From the NCBI GenBank assembly GCA_030820665.1, contig GCA_030820665.1_4852.1: a DNA stretch of 17,779 nucleotides, one strand, 5' to 3'. The notes beneath the pieces are model-generated. The model had not been told where the DNA came from. It saw nothing but the letters and a program-made list of their open reading frames with translations, and made no database searches. This DNA comes from a phage. The stretch's first letter is position 1, and every line of letters begins with the position of its first letter. A program made the position numbers and the translations under genes. Shown in pieces: positions 8,586 through 17,779 of this stretch.

Positions 8586-8887
8586 TATTTAATCTCTCCG
8601 TTCAGTTCATTAACAATTAACGTTGCATAGCCAGCAATATCTTTCCAGCTGTCATCATAAGTCGGGTCGCCATTCAGAATGCGCCCAATCTTGTGCTGAA
8701 TCATGTCGAGCGCCTCGCGTTGACTTGGTGTGAGATTGCGCCAGCCATCTACCTTGCGCATCACATCTTTCAACTCCTGCATAATTTCAGCGCCGTCTTT
8801 GAATTTACCGTATCGACTACCGCGTTCGGTGATGAGTCGCTCTGTTGCGTCAGTATGGCGCTTATCGCCCGTGATTTGTGAACTCAT
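8585..8887 (-). CDS. Hypothetical protein (100 aa), probably all-alpha
   Basis: Minus ORF with SD GGAGAA. Translates MSSQITGDKRHTDATERLITERGSRYGKFKDGAEIMQELKD...SQREALDMIQHKIGRILNGDPTYDDSWKDIAGYATLIV. No confident family assignment. Confidence 0.55.
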   Translation of the reverse strand: MSSQITGDKRHTDATERLITERGSRYGKFKDGAEIMQELKDVMRKVDGWRNLTPSQREALDMIQHKIGRILNGDPTYDDSWKDIAGYATLIVNELNGEIK

Positions 8888-9374
8888 TGTGATGCATTCT
8901 CCTGAATTCTTTTATTTTTGCTTCTGCTTCTCTTATGTCGGAAAAGTAACCAACTGTGAATCTTTTGCCATTTACTCCAACTCTTGCATGCCACTTGTTG
9001 TGCGATGAACTCCAGTTAACCCCCTTGATACCGCTAGTGTTGTTTTTGTTCATTGCTTTGTTGTGGCTATTCTCAAATTTGCTGGCCTCCCTTAAATTGC
9101 ACGCCCTGTTGTCATTGCGAATGCCATTAATGTGGTCAATCATTTCACTTGCTGGCGCGCCATGAATGCATATCCATGCCAATCTGTGAGCAAGAAAAGC
9201 CCTACCGCAAAGAATTATTTGCACATATCCATCTGGCTTTAAGTAGCCAGCCACACTCCCTTTTTCTGCAATCCTATTCCTTGTCTTTAGCCATTTAAAT
9301 TCCCCAGTTAGTGGATTGTAGTAAAGGTAACTCAATATAAACTCCCTACTCGGCTCATCTCTCCTATGCCTCAT
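8862..9374 (-). CDS. HNH homing endonuclease (HNH_3-type core with AP2-like C-terminal domain)
   Basis: Motifs YNPLTGEFKW, HRLAWICIHG, IDHINGIRNDNRACNLR and C-terminal SGIKGVNWSSSHNKWHARVGVNGKRFTVGYFSDIREAEAKIKEF. The region looks AT-richer than the flanking sequence. Confidence 0.85.
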   Translation of the reverse strand: MRHRRDEPSREFILSYLYYNPLTGEFKWLKTRNRIAEKGSVAGYLKPDGYVQIILCGRAFLAHRLAWICIHGAPASEMIDHINGIRNDNRACNLREASKFENSHNKAMNKNNTSGIKGVNWSSSHNKWHARVGVNGKRFTVGYFSDIREAEAKIKEFRRMHHNEFTNHGR

Positions 9375-9934: not shown

Positions 9935-10129
9935 ATGGCGCATGACGAACTGTACGAAGAATCGTTAATCCAGAGGTTGAATGAAGTTGAGCGCACTCGC
10001 GAATGGCTGGAGTGCGAGTTACGAGAAGTGCGCAACCGCCTGCAACGCAAGCGCAGTCAGCAAAGAGATGTCATCGACTGGTCTGGGGGTACACCTAAAT
10101 TTAACAATCTGGGAGAATGGTTGAAATGA
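9935..10129 (+). CDS. Hypothetical protein (64 aa), charged, probably helical
   Basis: GGGAGA SD; its stop overlaps the start of the downstream HNH gene. Confidence 0.45.
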   Translation: MAHDELYEESLIQRLNEVERTREWLECELREVRNRLQRKRSQQRDVIDWSGGTPKFNNLGEWLK

Positions 10130-10656
10130 GCAACATTAGTAAGGAAAGCATTTTAAAGTTCCTCCAGCATGATGAAAATACAGGAAACTTTCTATGGATT
10201 GATAATTTCTCAAGAAAATCAAAGAAAGGGAAGGTGGCTGGAGGTATTACATCGCATGGGTATTGGAGAATTCAACTCCCCATCGGGAGGTTTTACGCAC
10301 ACAGAATGGCGTGGATTGTTTGCAATGGAGATATACCAAACGGATATGAGATTGATCACATAAATGGGAACAAGAAAGATAATCGCATCAGCAACCTAAG
10401 ATTGGTCACAAGAGGTCAAAATGTTATGAATGTAGGCGTGAAAAACAATAATACAAGCGGAGTTAAGGATGTTGTTTGGGACTCTTCGCGAGAAAGGTGG
10501 AGGGTTCAAATTACAGCCAATGGCAAGCATTATTATGGAGGTAGATTCTCGTCAATAACACAAGCAAAAGAGGAGAGGAACAGGCTCATAAAGATGGTTC
10601 ACGGGAAATTTTTGAATACAAAAGGTGAGCAATATGACACTACTAATGAACGATGA
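10126..10656 (+). CDS. HNH homing endonuclease (HNH_3-type core with AP2-like C-terminal domain)
   Basis: Motifs ENTGNFLW, HRMAWIVCNG, IDHINGNKKDNRISNLR and SGVKDVVWDSSRERWRVQITANGKHYYGGRFSS; paralogous to 8862-9374 and to the fragment at 1-168. Start is 10126 or 10117. Confidence 0.85.
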   Translation: MSNISKESILKFLQHDENTGNFLWIDNFSRKSKKGKVAGGITSHGYWRIQLPIGRFYAHRMAWIVCNGDIPNGYEIDHINGNKKDNRISNLRLVTRGQNVMNVGVKNNNTSGVKDVVWDSSRERWRVQITANGKHYYGGRFSSITQAKEERNRLIKMVHGKFLNTKGEQYDTTNER

Positions 10657-12672: not shown

Positions 12673-14088
12673 ATGATTGTCAAGATTGGCGATAAGTGGG
12701 TGGTCAAGTCGAAAGACGGCTCACAGCAATTTGGTGAATACGACACAGAAGAGGCAGCAAAAAAACGCCTCGCAGAAGTCGAAGCGTTTAAGCACATGAA
12801 TAATAAATTGCAGGTTAACGTCCTGACAACCATCAATTCAGCCAGCAATATCAGTGAGCAAATCATTGATGGCGACCCGCACTACGTAATTAAAAACGTC
12901 GTGCCAGTGGTTGATGATGTTGTGATGAATAACGGCCTGTATCCGGGAGAGGAAATCCGCAAGAGCTATCACGGACTTGATGGTAAACCTGCACCATACA
13001 ATCACCCGATGATTGACGGTAAATATGTCTCTGCAAGCATGACGCGCGCAGCTAACCAGTTCAGCGTTGGCGCATGGATTGAAAACTCATCTCATGACGG
13101 CAGCAAGGCGCTGGTTGACCTGAAGGTAAACAAAGTCATCGCTGAACGCTCCGAGAAAGGTCAGGAGTTGCTTGGTCGCATTGAAGCGCTAATGAACTCC
13201 GCAGAAGGCGCAGAGCCAATCCATGTATCCACCGGCTTATTGCTCAACCGCGAGGCTACGGAAGGCACAAGCAAAGGCAAAAAATACACATGGATTGCGC
13301 GCAACATGGAATGGGACCATCTCGCCATCCTGCCGCCGGGAGTGCCAGGAGCTGGAACGCCAGAAGATGGTGTTGGAATCTTTGCCACCAACGGCGAGCA
13401 AATCGAACGCATCACCGTAAACCTTGAGGACTCAACCGTGCCAGACGAAAGCGCCAACAAGATTAATTATAAATCGTGGCTACATAAGGCCATCAACTAC
13501 ATCACCAACAAATCAGATTTGTCGTTTGAGAACATCAGTGAGCAGATTCGCCAGATTCTGAAGGCTGAAGTTGGCGAGGATGTCTGGCCTTATATTGTGG
13601 CTGTGTACGACGACCGCGTCGGATTTGAAATCAAAGGCCAGATTTTTCAGCAGCTCTACATCGTTGAAGATGATGTGGTAAAATTGGTCGGTGAGCGGGT
13701 CAAGGCTGTTTATAAAACTGAACTTGAGCCGGTAAAATCAACTGAAGGGGAAATCTCAATGACGAACGAGGAATTACAAGCGGCAGTAGCGGAAGCTACC
13801 AAGTTGGCCGTTAATGAAGCCCTCAAGCCGGTTCAGGAAAAGCTTGATTCCGTCACTGCTGAACTGACCGATGTTAAAGGCAAGCTCGCAGCCAACGCCG
13901 AGCAGGAAGAAACCGCGATGCGTGCTGCTATCATCGCGGAACTGAAACTGCCGGAATCCGCTGTGAATGCGCTGAAAGGCGAAGCACTGCGTGAAACCTA
14001 TGCGTTGACCAGCAAGCCTGCTGCGCTGAAGGGTGGCTTCCAGCCGAACCACGCTGATGACGATTTTGATATGGAGGCACCGGAATAA
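12673..14088 (+). CDS. Putative prohead scaffold / head maturation protein (C-terminal coiled-coil domain)
   Basis: ORF track 12595-14088; ATG 12673 follows GGAGAG. The C-terminal ~110 aa ([48 protein letters not shown]...) is scaffold-like. Position immediately upstream of the small head protein and capsid gene. Confidence 0.55.
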
Positions 14089-14573
14089 TGGCTACTATCC
14101 GTTATGGCACCATCATTGGTGGTCCAGCTCGCAAGAACGACCCGCAGATTCGCGAAGGCATCATGAAGGTCGCGTTGAAGCCGGGCGCACTGGTTGACTT
14201 CGATACTGCCTCCTCAATTCGTTCCAATTATGACAAAATCATCGCACACGCTACCGCTGGCGGTCAGGGATTCCCTTACGTGCTTCAGCATAACTATCTC
14301 GGTGGTGGCGATGTATCTGAATCAGTTCCTGCTAATGCTACTGGCATGGCTGTGCAGTGCGAATTTGGCGTCACCTATCACGCACTGGTTGCTGCATCTT
14401 CCGAGCTGAAGAAAGGCACCCCGTTGGCAAGTAATGGTACTGGCGCGCTGAAAGTTGCTGGTAATAGGGATAACATCCTGTTCTATTCTTATGAAACTTA
14501 CACCGTTGCCTCTGATGGCGCTGAGCTGGTTGCAGTTCGTCGCGCTGGCAATGCTTCCATGCCTGCGGCGTAA
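14088..14573 (+). CDS. Putative head decoration / auxiliary capsid protein (161 aa)
   Basis: TAATG overlap with the scaffold stop; lies between the scaffold-like gene and the capsid gene; Gly/Ala/Thr-rich, beta-type composition. Confidence 0.45.
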
Positions 14574-14584
14574 GGAGCCGAATA

Positions 14585-15658
14585 ATGGAAAAGATTATTT
14601 TTACCAAAGACTTGGTAGCCAACTCCGCAGTGGTGGCTGACCAGTGGAAACATCTCACCATCGACCGCAAGGTGTTCTGCAATGCAGAAGCTGAACTGGC
14701 GAAAACATACGGTGTTAACGCCACCGCGCTGGTAACGAAAGATTACTGGCGCGACGTGGATAACGTCACCACCCGTGTTTTCCGCAACGAAGCTGGCCAG
14801 GACATGATGGCTGACCTGATGGGTATCGCGGCAAACATTAACATTGGTAAGACTGTGGCAATCAGCCGCATTGCTTCCGATGCTGGCAAGGTAGTCCGCA
14901 CTCTGTCTGGTCAGGAGCCGGAAGACTTGGATAAAACTCGCTACGATTACACTGGCGACGTGATTCCAATCTTCAAAACTGGCTACAGCCGCGAATGGCG
15001 CGAACTGCTGGGTATGCAGTCTGAAGGTTTTGACCCCCTGCTGGACGATCAGGCTAACGTCACCTTTAACCTACGTTCCGACATGGCGCAGTATCTGCTG
15101 ACCGGCGACCAGACTCTGAACGTGAACGGCGTTTACACTGGCTACGGTATCACCAACCACCCGAACACCATTCAGGTCGACCTGAACGTTTCCAATGGCA
15201 GCCTGAAGATCGACCTGCAAACCGCAACGCCAGATGAAATCGTGAAATTCTTCAATCAGGATTTCCAGGCTATTCTGGATGCGCAGAACGTATTTGAGCA
15301 GGTGACTCTGTGGGTTTCCCCGGCAGTGCGTCGCAGTTTCATGCGTCCGTATTCTGATGCGGCTGGCTTCAAAGGCGGCACGGTTGAGCAGTACATCACG
15401 CAGTTCGGTAATGGTCGCATTGGTAAGATTGGCACCAACTTCCTGCTGACTGGCAACCATTTCGTTGGTTACGTTCGCAACGACATGTACATCCGTCCGC
15501 GTGTTGCTCAGCCTGTCTCCACCTATGCGGCAGCTCGCACCAACCCGCACGATAACTTTAACTTCCTCGTATGGTCTGCTTTCGGTCTGCAGATTCGCAA
15601 GGATGCCGCTGGAAAAAGCCGCGTCTTTAATTGCTATGGTAGCCAGAAAGCTAAATAA
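14585..15658 (+). CDS. Major capsid protein (putative)
   Basis: 357-aa ORF with a strong AAGGAG SD, last gene of the scaffold-decoration-capsid block, followed by a strong terminator. Confidence 0.65.
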   Translation: MEKIIFTKDLVANSAVVADQWKHLTIDRKVFCNAEAELAKTYGVNATALVTKDYWRDVDNVTTRVFRNEAGQDMMADLMGIAANINIGKTVAISRIASDAGKVVRTLSGQEPEDLDKTRYDYTGDVIPIFKTGYSREWRELLGMQSEGFDPLLDDQANVTFNLRSDMAQYLLTGDQTLNVNGVYTGYGITNHPNTIQVDLNVSNGSLKIDLQTATPDEIVKFFNQDFQAILDAQNVFEQVTLWVSPAVRRSFMRPYSDAAGFKGGTVEQYITQFGNGRIGKIGTNFLLTGNHFVGYVRNDMYIRPRVAQPVSTYAAARTNPHDNFNFLVWSAFGLQIRKDAAGKSRVFNCYGSQKAK

Positions 15659-15660
15659 TA

Positions 15661-15687
15661 AAAAAGGGGGTTTATCCCCCTTCTTTG
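15661..15687. terminator. Rho-independent bidirectional terminator
   Basis: AAAAAGGGGG-TTTAT-CCCCCTTCTTTG: GGGGG/CCCCC stem (15666-15670 / 15676-15680) with an A-run upstream and T-run downstream. The minus-strand gene's stop (15672-15674) lies in the loop. Confidence 0.8.
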
Positions 15688-16478
15688 TATCTAATTTCAC
15701 CGTAAACCATGTACTGTAACATGTAACAAAACTCCCATTCCGTCATATCTGTCCGTAGCCACTTCCTGTTCTTCTTGTAATTGTACTCCGCCAGCTCCGC
15801 TTTTAAATTGTGAAGAGCATTAACCAGTTCTGGATATACGAGGTTATTCTTAACAAACCAGTTGACAGATAAAATATGGTCAATATGCCAATTATTGCGG
15901 TCATCAAAACTCATCCATGGAAGCATGGTTGATTTTATATGCTTAATGAAATCATCCTTTGAGTACCCGAGAACATCATCTACTGTTCTATCAAGCGCAA
16001 TGTCAGATACTCTCATATCAAGCCGCTCAAGCATTTTTCTTAGGAACACGTGGTGTGGGTGCTTCTTTTGCCATTGCCTGACATTATCCAGAGCCTTTTT
16101 ATTGCCTTTCTCTGAGTAGTACCATCTGCGATAAGCTTCCCTTTTCTTTTGTAAAAACTCCTCCTTTTTCTCTGGATTCTCGTTAAGCCTTTGCATCTTC
16201 CTTTTGTTGTACTCCTGTTGTGATTGTTTTCTTTTCTTTTTGTACTCGCTGTTATCCTTGTTTTTCTGCCACTCCTTTTTTCTGTACTCACTTTCCTTGC
16301 GTTTGCGCTCCTCTGTTGTTCTCTGCTTCCTTGTTCTTTCGTATACGCAATGCTTGCATCCGCCTGATGCTGTAAAAAACACAGTTCCACCACATACAGA
16401 GCATGGAATCCATTCACACACAAATTGCTTCAGTCCAGCAACCCTTGCTTCTTGCGCGGCTTCTTTTCTTGTTTTCAT
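15672..16478 (-). CDS. Zinc-ribbon protein with Lys/Arg/Glu-rich repeat linker and a C-terminal HNH-like motif (putative nuclease)
   Basis: 268-aa minus ORF with a strong SD (AGGAGTG). N-terminal CEWIPCSVCGG...GGCKHC; central low-complexity basic region with reiterated SEYRKK/SEYKKKRK/QEYNKRK; C-terminal NNWHIDHILSVNWF...NALHNL resembling an HNH core. Confidence 0.65.
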   Translation of the reverse strand: MKTRKEAAQEARVAGLKQFVCEWIPCSVCGGTVFFTASGGCKHCVYERTRKQRTTEERKRKESEYRKKEWQKNKDNSEYKKKRKQSQQEYNKRKMQRLNENPEKKEEFLQKKREAYRRWYYSEKGNKKALDNVRQWQKKHPHHVFLRKMLERLDMRVSDIALDRTVDDVLGYSKDDFIKHIKSTMLPWMSFDDRNNWHIDHILSVNWFVKNNLVYPELVNALHNLKAELAEYNYKKNRKWLRTDMTEWEFCYMLQYMVYGEIRYKEGG

Positions 16479-16504
16479 AAAGTCACTCCTAATTTGGTTT
16501 TATA

Positions 16505-16534
16505 TTACCACGAGTGTAACTAGTGTGCTACAAT
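16505..16534 (+). promoter_or_regulatory. Candidate promoter (TTACCA, 18-nt spacer, extended -10 TGcTACAAT)
   Basis: TTACCA at 16505-16510; TG at 16526-16527 plus TACAAT at 16529-16534; about 30 nt upstream of the ATG at 16565, in a divergent intergenic region. Confidence 0.35.
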
Positions 16535-16564
16535 TAACCAGCATTAACTCATGAGGATATTTAA

Positions 16565-16762
16565 ATGGCTAAATACGAAGTGATTGCGCGAGGCATCTTT
16601 GTCAAAGAAAAAGGCAAGATTCGTGAGTTGCAGCTTGGCGAGGTGATTACCGAACCTGCTGATCATCTGATGTCAAAGCTGCGCGTTATGCCAGAACTGG
16701 AAAAATCTTTCGAAGTCGCAACCCCGCAAGAAAAGACGACAAAGAAAAAGAAAGCAGAGTAA
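16565..16762 (+). CDS. Hypothetical protein (65 aa), Lys-rich C-terminus
   Basis: ATG with GAGGA SD; followed directly by a terminator. Confidence 0.5.
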   Translation: MAKYEVIARGIFVKEKGKIRELQLGEVITEPADHLMSKLRVMPELEKSFEVATPQEKTTKKKKAE

Positions 16763-16766
16763 ACTG

Positions 16767-16790
16767 AACCCGCATAATGCGGGTTTTTTA
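16767..16790 (+). terminator. Rho-independent terminator
   Basis: CCCGCAT-A-ATGCGGG hairpin (16769-16783) followed by TTTTTT. Confidence 0.75.
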
Positions 16791-16802
16791 TTGGGGGTTT
16801 CT

Positions 16803-17621
16803 ATGGCTGTCAGGTACGAAATAAACACAACTCCGGCTGACGGAGAGGTTTTGCTTAGCGAAACCATGTCTGCGGACTGGTCAGCATTACAGGTGCAGAT
16901 TGTGCCGCTAAATTCTTCCGGTGGCTATGTGCCATTAACAAGCGGGTCTGTTTACGTAATGGTATCGCCGTTTGCGTCTGGTGATTTCTGGATTGACGTC
17001 AACAATAATAATTATTATGGCGTAGCGCTGCGGCTGAAGGTGATCAAGTCCCAAATACCTGCTGGCATTGCATCTCTGAAAGTCCTTGTATGGCGAGCAG
17101 CTACATCAGTGCCATCAAGTCAGGTTGTGGCACAGTCCTATGCAGAGTTTGCTAACAAGCAAGGGAAGTTATTCACTGCGTCGCGCAGAGTAACTGATGT
17201 CGCTGGCAGCTCAAACCTTGACAGCATATTTATCACCGGAACAAAGCAGGTGATATTCAACCAGCGCATTATTGGTTACACGGGGAAAGGTGTTGTTGCA
17301 TCAATCTATCGCGGCGCAGTTGCCACTGGCGGTACGACGGCAGAGATTAACAACCCAAACGACATAACGCCACAAGCAGCTACGGCGCAGTTAATTACTG
17401 GCGCTACCGTGACAAACATCGGGCAGCTGACGGTGGCGGCAACATACAGTGAGGGTAACGCATCGAATCAGGGGCAGGGTAACTCGCAGGCGAAGCTCGG
17501 CGAGCAGATTATCATGGCACCGAATACGACGTACTTACTTCGCATAACATCACTAGATACTGCGGCGCAGAATATCAATGCGTACGTTTCATGGTTTGAG
17601 GATGATACTTATCTGGCGTGA
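16803..17621 (+). CDS. Putative virion structural protein (273 aa, beta-rich, Thr/Ser/Gly/Ala/Asn-rich)
   Basis: ORF track 16791-17621; ATG 16803 follows GGGGG. Composition resembles a decoration, tail or fibre-type protein; no motif recognised. Confidence 0.45.
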   Translation: MAVRYEINTTPADGEVLLSETMSADWSALQVQIVPLNSSGGYVPLTSGSVYVMVSPFASGDFWIDVNNNNYYGVALRLKVIKSQIPAGIASLKVLVWRAATSVPSSQVVAQSYAEFANKQGKLFTASRRVTDVAGSSNLDSIFITGTKQVIFNQRIIGYTGKGVVASIYRGAVATGGTTAEINNPNDITPQAATAQLITGATVTNIGQLTVAATYSEGNASNQGQGNSQAKLGEQIIMAPNTTYLLRITSLDTAAQNINAYVSWFEDDTYLA

Positions 17622-17623
17622 TA

Positions 17624-17650
17624 AAAGAAAAGCCCCGCAAGTGGCTTTTT
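17624..17650. terminator. Possible weak bidirectional terminator
   Basis: AAAAGCC ... GGCTTTTT with an 8-nt loop (CCGCAAGT); short stem, so weak. Confidence 0.35.
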
Positions 17651-17654
17651 ATTG

Positions 17655-17779
17655 CTACAGACGCATAGGCATAACAACAATCTTCGCAGTCTCTCCAGAT
17701 GGCGCACTAAGACAGCAAACAGCGGCATCTGTGTTTCCATTTAGTTCAAATTTAACGCAACAGAATCTTGGGTTAAACA
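17655..17779 (-). CDS. Possible 3' end of a minus-strand gene entering from beyond the window
   Basis: Minus frame open from the window edge to TAG (complement of 17655-17657); C-terminal 40 aa FNPRFCCVKFELNGNTDAAVCCLSAPSGETAKIVVMPMRL. Too short to judge. Confidence 0.25.
   Translation of the reverse strand, partial: FNPRFCCVKFELNGNTDAAVCCLSAPSGETAKIVVMPMRL

Follow-up and report, generated by a model that had tools for sequence, protein, structure and literature searches.

A minus-strand open reading frame (ORF) directly behind the major capsid gene of a Skatevirus-like Salmonella siphophage is, in our assessment, very probably a free-standing homing endonuclease gene of the HNH superfamily (His-Me finger, H-N-N variant), carried on a cassette of ~0.9 kb. 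We analysed it within a stretch of phage DNA of 17,779 nucleotides, hereafter the window, using comparisons with related phages, profile searches, structure prediction, and measures of selection. Presence/absence polymorphism at one site and an altered flank in carriers only, as in free-standing homing endonuclease genes, were found, and the gene is intact and under selection. The gene (15672-16478, minus strand) was annotated from the ORF itself, its match to phrog_1035, its dN/dS, and its GC content.

Genomic context and a shared terminator

Over positions 14000-17779, the window is 97.8% identical to phage vB_SenS_ST1UNAM, and it is 92.7% identical to VSt472 across the shared 78% of the same interval. 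The ORF, whose coordinates include the stop codon, starts with ATG, encodes 268 amino acids, and converges antisense on the major capsid gene (14585-15658, plus strand; phrog_771/264), just as an original prediction made from the sequence had placed it. It is the sole minus-strand gene in the late block of the window, where the genes run in the order large terminase (104-1585), portal, head morphogenesis, a 470-aa protein (phrog_760), head decoration, and major capsid protein.

Between the two convergent genes the sequence reads TAATAAAAAA-GGGGG-TTTAT-CCCCC-TTCTTT, in which the hairpin GGGGG-TTTAT-CCCCC (15666-15680) has A/T tracts on either side and was called as a terminator on both strands by our scan, with folding energies of -14.9 (plus) and -16.1 (minus) kcal/mol. 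From the scan and these energies, we delimit a bidirectional intrinsic terminator common to the capsid and endonuclease genes at 15660-15686 (both strands). The TAA of the ORF (15672-15674, minus strand) falls within the hairpin loop, and the final four codons, AAA GAA GGG GGA (K-E-G-G), are complementary to the T-tract and to the 3' arm of the stem, which agrees with the earlier proposal that both genes use one terminator overlapping the minus-strand stop codon. In all carriers of the gene, the minus-strand stop codon (TAA, TAG, or TGA) likewise lies in the terminator loop. Insert-free phages also have a comparable hairpin behind the capsid gene, and the terminator is therefore probably ancestral to the capsid operon.

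Insertion at a fixed site behind the capsid gene

We found the capsid gene in 162 phage records, 157 of them at 90-95% nucleotide identity, and the ORF, searched as protein or DNA (tblastn or blastn), in only 14 records representing 11 phages, as well as in many metagenome contigs. Named carriers are ST1UNAM, VSt472, 64795_sal3, ZCEC08, CF-SP1, the Klebsiella phages RCIP0071 and BUCT610, and Logan metagenome contigs; the further carriers examined (n=8 phages) belong to Skatevirus, Saltrevirus, or Swiduovirus or are unclassified, and two of them are Klebsiella phages. In every carrier examined, the ORF is antisense and occupies the same spacer, bounded by the capsid gene on one side and the same 65-aa gene on the other, and even a metagenome allele that is 38% identical (P0015) holds this position, behind a capsid gene that is 68% identical. 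Presence in a minority, with the gene missing from >90% of phages that have the same capsid module, is the pattern characteristic of free-standing homing endonucleases, and the same rarity speaks against the earlier idea of a packaged or late structural factor.

Six relatives without the ORF were inspected, and in five of them (HC6, C1, IME207, swi2, and Sf11) the empty spacer measures 41-43 nt from the capsid stop to the next ATG and contains the terminator, a ribosome-binding site (RBS), and then the ATG. Both states occur inside Swiduovirus, where swi2 is without and CF-SP1 with the insert. These comparisons bear out the original view of the gene as an insertion behind the capsid gene, as it was present in 14 records vs 162 with the capsid gene, and the capsid gene leads directly to the next gene in five of the six insert-free relatives. 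The sixth holds an unrelated gene: in Salmonella phage STGO-35-1 (L017, 1672-2019), a 115-aa plus-strand gene matching phrog_322 (unknown function) fills the same spacer, and the spacer is therefore a general insertion hotspot for accessory genes.

BLAST homology to HC6, C1, and IME207 stops at 15639-15682 and restarts at 16564. From these breakpoints and the 41-43-nt empty sites, the inserted cassette spans 15683-16563 and has no counterpart in related gene-free phages; its GC content is 41% vs 51-55% for the capsid genes. Farther downstream lies a second variable gene (16791-17621, plus strand; 276 aa; phrog_5335, unknown function; no Pfam match), which is missing in VSt472, 64795_sal3, and ZCEC08 and found in HC6, C1, and ST1UNAM. 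The minus-strand gene after it (537-540 nt; window 17650 onward; relatives L001-L005) is annotated inconsistently in public databases: some records name it "DNA polymerase III beta subunit", whereas RefSeq has "RusA-like Holliday junction resolvase".

Carriers also show divergence at the 3' end of their capsid gene. Compared with the insert-free consensus, carriers that are near insert-free phages keep 87-100% identity in the upstream part of the capsid gene, and identity falls to 52-57% in its last 60 nt (window, VSt472) or to 75-78% in its last 120 nt (sal3, ZCEC08). Insert-free phages stay at 85-100% identity at this end. This divergence tract (15540-15658, plus strand), defined by identity to the insert-free consensus, is a candidate target-site or co-conversion region. 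No such tract was found on the right flank, where the 65-aa protein of the window is identical to that of C1 and IME207. Divergence on the left alone is the expected outcome of co-conversion or target-site immunity beside a free-standing homing endonuclease gene, and the asymmetry of the flanks suggests a cleavage site in the capsid 3' end or the terminator, although ordinary mosaic recombination could also be the source of the divergence.

An HNH protein inside the head and packaging gene block might instead be a terminase-associated factor that helps genome cutting in packaging, in the manner of HK97 gp74. We consider this extremely improbable, given that 14 kb separate the gene from that of the large terminase, which is on the opposite strand, that it is missing in most phages with the same terminase, portal, and capsid module, and that a protein of 268 aa with a large putative DNA-recognition region is unlike packaging HNH proteins, which are small. 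Membership in the HK97 gp74-like group was rejected, as the gene is neither beside the terminase or portal genes nor conserved with the module.

Putative expression signals carried by the cassette

The homing endonuclease cassette, as we interpret it, includes an 86-bp intergenic region (16479-16564) with divergent extended -10 promoter-like elements and the endonuclease RBS. The plus-strand element, TGCTACAAT (16526-16534), matches the consensus, was also picked up in a consensus scan, is present in nine of nine cassettes, and points at the downstream 65-aa gene. On the minus strand, TGGTAATAT (16510-16502) matches the consensus in six of nine cassettes and is followed by AGGAG, a consensus match to an RBS for the endonuclease (16486-16490, minus strand), and then by the ATG. 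Both elements have been kept in position though the surrounding cassette sequence diverged, and as matches to the consensus they are putative promoters. No extended -10-like element is found in the 41-43-nt spacer of insert-free phages, and the cassette thus apparently brings a replacement promoter for the downstream phage gene. Taken with an ORF that ends inside the capsid terminator, which terminates the ORF too, promoter-like elements for itself and for the downstream gene make the cassette appear adapted to its site.

An HNH catalytic core in a large protein family

Cysteines occur at residues 21, 26, 29, 41, 44, and 251 of the protein, and C26, C29, C41, and C44 are invariant in 14 close homologues, so the N-terminal Cys cluster of the original prediction stands. 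We assign these four residues to an N-terminal zinc knuckle (residues 21-46; 16341-16418, minus strand). In the wider family, the knuckle reads PCKxGH...CxxC, with C41 and C44 conserved at 90% or more, and single family members match treble-clef or zinc-ribbon Pfam models at this position. Some members (P0029, P0043) have a doubled N-terminal "YFTGxxCxxGH...CxxC" knuckle or additional Cys-rich inserts, and the two knuckle copies in some members indicate that the N-terminal module is itself duplicable.

The C-terminal motif WHIDHILSVNWF...NALHNL...EYNYKKN is present, with a core of WHIDHI...NALHNL...N. Five of its residues (D200, H201, N224, N233, and K236, query numbering) are invariant across 147 sampled family members, and N220 is conserved at 90% or more in these sequences. 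D200/H201/N224/N233 form the HNH pattern in its H-N-N form, with an Asp-preceded catalytic His, a central Asn, and a distal metal ligand. Relatives match PF01844 HNH (36/147, best E 1.9e-5) and HNH_4 (7/147) at E 0.01 or better; the query itself has no Pfam match and reaches no HNH Pfam threshold, so its Pfam link to HNH is transitive only. Scans of the query against Pfam, NCBIfam, and PADLOC gave nothing meaningful. Sequence searches of the PDB with profiles of 14 and of 147 sequences found nothing better than E 0.37, and the weak alignments to BrxU/GmrSD and ZRANB3 (E 0.37 or worse) line up the HIDH...NL...N motif.

Structure prediction with AlphaFold2 depended on the depth of the alignment: with 14 close homologues, the C-terminal domain was not resolved (pLDDT <50 for residues 197-240), and with the 147-sequence alignment, the model reached pLDDT 94.3 and pTM 0.63. 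In the latter, strands 197-201 and 225-229 and helix 230-236 are predicted to form a beta-beta-alpha unit. Foldseek searches with the model against viral models gave significant matches to HNH and intron-encoded endonucleases (E 8e-8 to 1e-6), including an intron-encoded endonuclease of Bodo saltans virus (8e-8), HNHc-domain phage proteins (~1e-6), and HNH endonucleases of Hyperionvirus, Xanthomonas phage FoX1, and marseilleviruses. Against the PDB, there was no significant match; the best was the STPR major-groove-tracking domain, and Cas9 HNH domains came next, with HNH domains at E 0.1 or worse. From the invariant residues, predicted fold, family Pfam matches, and Foldseek results, we place an HNH (beta-beta-alpha-metal) catalytic core at residues 189-240 (15759-15914, minus strand). 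The resemblance to HNH nucleases seen originally in the C-terminal motif has therefore gained support from invariant residues (D200, H201, N224, and N233 in 147 sequences), from relatives that match PF01844, and from a predicted HNH-type (His-Me finger) fold that significantly resembles viral HNH and intron-encoded endonuclease models.

A regulator that binds DNA or RNA without catalysis, or a nucleic-acid-binding protein associated with the virion, might also have a very basic helical array such as this one, for which the best structural match was the DNA-binding domain of a transcription factor. Such a role is barely tenable for a protein that has kept every catalytic HNH residue across 147 divergent sequences; moreover, there is no structural-protein signal, the gene runs antisense to the late operon, and relatives do without it.

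With an E threshold of 1e-3, a profile of the 14 close homologues matched 6,845 cluster representatives, and 587 of these also passed a threshold of 1e-10. Among the best 150 of the 6,845, many are ~240 aa long and aligned from profile position ~9 to ~237. The family consensus has three parts, i.e., a "YFTGxPCKxGH...CxxC" knuckle, the repeat region, and "GMSWxNxxEWHIDHIxP...INALSNLQPLWxxDNxxK". The domain combination had been thought unusual, but zinc knuckle, basic repeats, and HNH core recur together across the best-scoring members of this 6,845-representative family. In the Salmonella phage SeKF_13 (Kolesnikvirus; L008, 2371-3888), a 30%-identical homologue comes straight after the DNA polymerase gene and an annotated HNH endonuclease gene, placing two tandem nuclease genes at a replication-gene boundary, a neighbourhood typical of homing endonucleases.

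Relationship to characterized nucleases

The query matches phrog_1035, labelled "endonuclease VII", over residues 2-257 (E 4e-19), as do all of the sampled family members (147/147 match PHROG 1035), and endonuclease VII is likewise a beta-beta-alpha-metal enzyme with a zinc site (PMC6083498). The label would make the protein an endonuclease VII-type Holliday-junction resolvase or DNA-processing enzyme, which we regard as very unlikely. Proteins of the Endo VII/DHHRN family have a central DHDH, close CX2-4C and CX2C flanks, a conserved Arg, and no central Asn (PMC6083498); the ORF, unlike these, has HIDH in place of DHDH, has no flanking Cys pairs (its Cys cluster is ~155 residues upstream), and has a central Asn (N224). 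With the DHHRN signature missing, the ORF is not a member of this family. PF02945 is absent both from the query matches and from the listed family matches (E 0.01 or better). An essential resolvase would also not be expected to be missing from >90% of close relatives, and a RusA-like resolvase is annotated just downstream in relatives. We therefore rejected Endo VII/DHHRN membership on the basis of WHIDHI...NALHNL...N, the missing Cys flanks, and the missing PF02945 among the listed matches. What the ORF does have in common with F-CphI and T4 endonuclease VII ("DHHRN") is the beta-beta-alpha-metal fold and a C-terminal catalytic domain, and a free-standing phage homing endonuclease is known from that group (PMC6083498).

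For the homing endonuclease that we favour, the closest counterparts in genetic organization are MobA-E, the free-standing HNH homing endonucleases of T4-like phages (PMC2790892, PMC2988022, PMC5714182). Like the ORF, MobA-E (His-Me finger group 1, PF01844) are self-contained intergenic genes between conserved phage genes, and they share with it sporadic presence in close relatives, an HNH motif, and a divergence or co-conversion tract in the neighbouring gene. Unlike MobA-E, the ORF has its catalytic domain at the C terminus, behind the zinc knuckle and 15-residue basic helical repeats, and its nuclease activity is a prediction.

I-HmuI, an HNH nicking enzyme (PDB 1u3e, His-Me group 2), has the same H-N-N site with an Asp-His general base and an Asn metal ligand, and there, too, the active site is joined to an extended modular DNA-binding region, which in the ORF is putative. 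I-HmuI is intron-encoded, with an N-terminal catalytic domain and NUMOD/HTH modules (PMC5714182), whereas the ORF is free-standing and has a different putative DNA-binding module. A group I intron or intein context was rejected for the ORF, the gene being intergenic and antisense. Two further HNH-type genes in the window look like I-HmuI-type homing endonucleases, one (8862-9374, minus strand) encoding 170 aa with HNH_3 (6.8e-11) and AP2 (9.7e-5) domains and the other (10117-10656, plus strand) 179 aa with HNH_3 (3.4e-20), so that together with the ORF this genome is rich in such elements, with at least three genes. Resemblance to Cas9 HNH domains (e.g., PDB 7mpz, 8d2k) is limited to weak Foldseek matches (E 0.1 or worse), and the ORF is without an RNA-guided context.

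A basic helical repeat array as a putative DNA-recognition arm

Between knuckle and catalytic core lies a basic helical repeat array, a putative DNA-recognition arm (residues 47-140; 16059-16340, minus strand). These 94 residues are 37% K+R, with a pI of 10.2, and have no Pfam match. The original prediction had described an extremely basic low-complexity linker with (S/Q)EY(K/R/N)K(K/R) units; the very basic region and three such units are present in the query (SEYRKK at 63, SEYKKK at 77, and QEYNKR at 88), but the low-complexity linker gives way to a confident helix array with a defined 15-residue repeat family-wide. Five consecutive helices were predicted confidently by AlphaFold2 (42-54, 56-73, 77-100, 102-120, and 123-139). 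Across the family, the anchor motif is spaced predominantly by 15 residues (117 spacings), and 136 units yield the 15-residue consensus Y-R-x-E-N-K-E-x-x-x-E-Y-x-K-K, of which the query copies are degenerate. Judging from the predicted model, we infer that array and zinc knuckle together form the DNA-recognition arm.

In this model, basic helices follow one another in series with short kinks, a geometry as in DNA-bound STPR, and the resemblance to STPR rests on this predicted inter-helix geometry. STPR repeats are strictly 23 residues long, with conserved E1, T/S2, and R9, and have been reported almost only from animals (PMC4856987). The STPR of Bombyx FMBP-1 (PDB 5d23) has this 23-residue repeat, vs 15 residues in the phage family, and there is no detectable sequence similarity between the two. 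Membership in the STPR family was rejected on the 15-residue spacing (117 spacings) and the different consensus, and with repeat length and consensus both different, the resemblance is one of architecture or helix path. We advance tentatively, and with considerable doubt, the idea that the array is a viral counterpart of animal STPR, convergent or very distant, which thousands of HNH endonucleases from phages and giant viruses would have in differing copy numbers. Its short helices would track the major groove with a few base pairs per repeat, and the number and sequence of the repeats would determine how long the homing site is and which sequence it has. Our literature search, which was incomplete, found no link between STPR and phage nucleases and no account of the ORF in Skatevirus papers.

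Selection and allele divergence

With dN/dS of 0.06-0.10 (pairs with unsaturated dS), the ORF is, by sequence comparison, a genuine gene under purifying selection. The protein ends in a conserved acidic C-terminal extension (residues 241-268; 15675-15758, minus strand), which includes a predicted helix (247-259) and closes with the terminator-encoded K-E-G-G. Its last 25 codons keep 83% amino-acid identity between alleles that are only 33-68% identical over the remaining gene. Synonymous differences in these codons (0.47) are as common as elsewhere in the gene, which places the constraint on the protein. A DNA-level element behind the C-terminal conservation was ruled out by these synonymous differences, only the last four codons being fixed as DNA; among alleles, only AAA GAA GGG GGx (terminator stem and T-tract) is DNA-invariant. 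Three metagenome homologues are shortened (P0014, 150 aa; P0017, 117 aa; P0018, 91 aa), and two of them (P0017, P0018) have a full-length-like start followed by unrelated sequence, as after a frameshift; all three are possibly degenerating copies or artefacts of assembly.

The alleles diverged long ago, with ORFs 57-77% identical between phages whose capsid genes are 79-93% identical, and what maintains the element may hence be vertical descent or a benefit and not continuing homing. If the nuclease were domesticated or beneficial (a "moron"), it would persist by harming competing phages (marker or partial exclusion) or by aiding its phage against host defences or in recombination, and not via selfish homing. 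Strong purifying selection (dN/dS as above) and deep allele divergence at one fixed site are in keeping with such a role, as are a C-terminal extension conserved in capsid-site alleles and the near relatives P0015 and P0026 and missing in typical shorter members, and a spacer that is an accessory-gene hotspot (with a different gene in STGO-35-1). We nonetheless judge it unlikely, as no PADLOC defence model was matched and the rarity of the gene (14/~162 records) disfavours a large fitness benefit; mechanistically, it also overlaps with homing, the cleavage and repair being the same.

Proposed homing mechanism

By analogy with characterised free-standing homing endonucleases, we picture the following course for the favoured homing endonuclease. 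When a carrier co-infects a cell with a cassette-free relative, the enzyme would use its N-terminal zinc knuckle and basic helix array to bind a long site close to the empty spacer; the final ~60 nt of the capsid gene, or the terminator behind it, are the most likely location. The C-terminal HNH site would then nick or cut the DNA by means of D200, H201, N233, and a divalent metal, and recombinational repair off the cassette-bearing genome would copy the cassette and some flank into the cut genome. Cleavage, target location, DNA binding by the repeats, and homing itself are putative in this scheme.

Conclusions

Together, these results provide good support for an element of ordinary kind, a free-standing HNH homing endonuclease from a large and poorly annotated family. 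They give a "hypothetical protein" a specific, testable role in the phage, and they explain a mosaic breakpoint near the capsid gene among Skatevirus-like phages, with the capsid 3' end as the probable cleavage target in relatives. Skatevirus-like phages are under development for the biocontrol of Salmonella and E. coli. For annotation more broadly, PHROG 1035 is mislabelled as "endonuclease VII", and a very large HNH family has a zinc knuckle at the N terminus and a helical repeat of 15 residues that is without Pfam coverage. The one feature that could reward more study is the array of basic helical 15-residue repeats with its STPR-like predicted path. If the proposed correspondence is true, the STPR-like array would be a modular, possibly re-codable DNA-recognition scaffold joined to a nuclease, and should the repeats, like those of STPR, read DNA in a modular way, nature would have provided in this family a library of DNA-binding arrays linked to nucleases.
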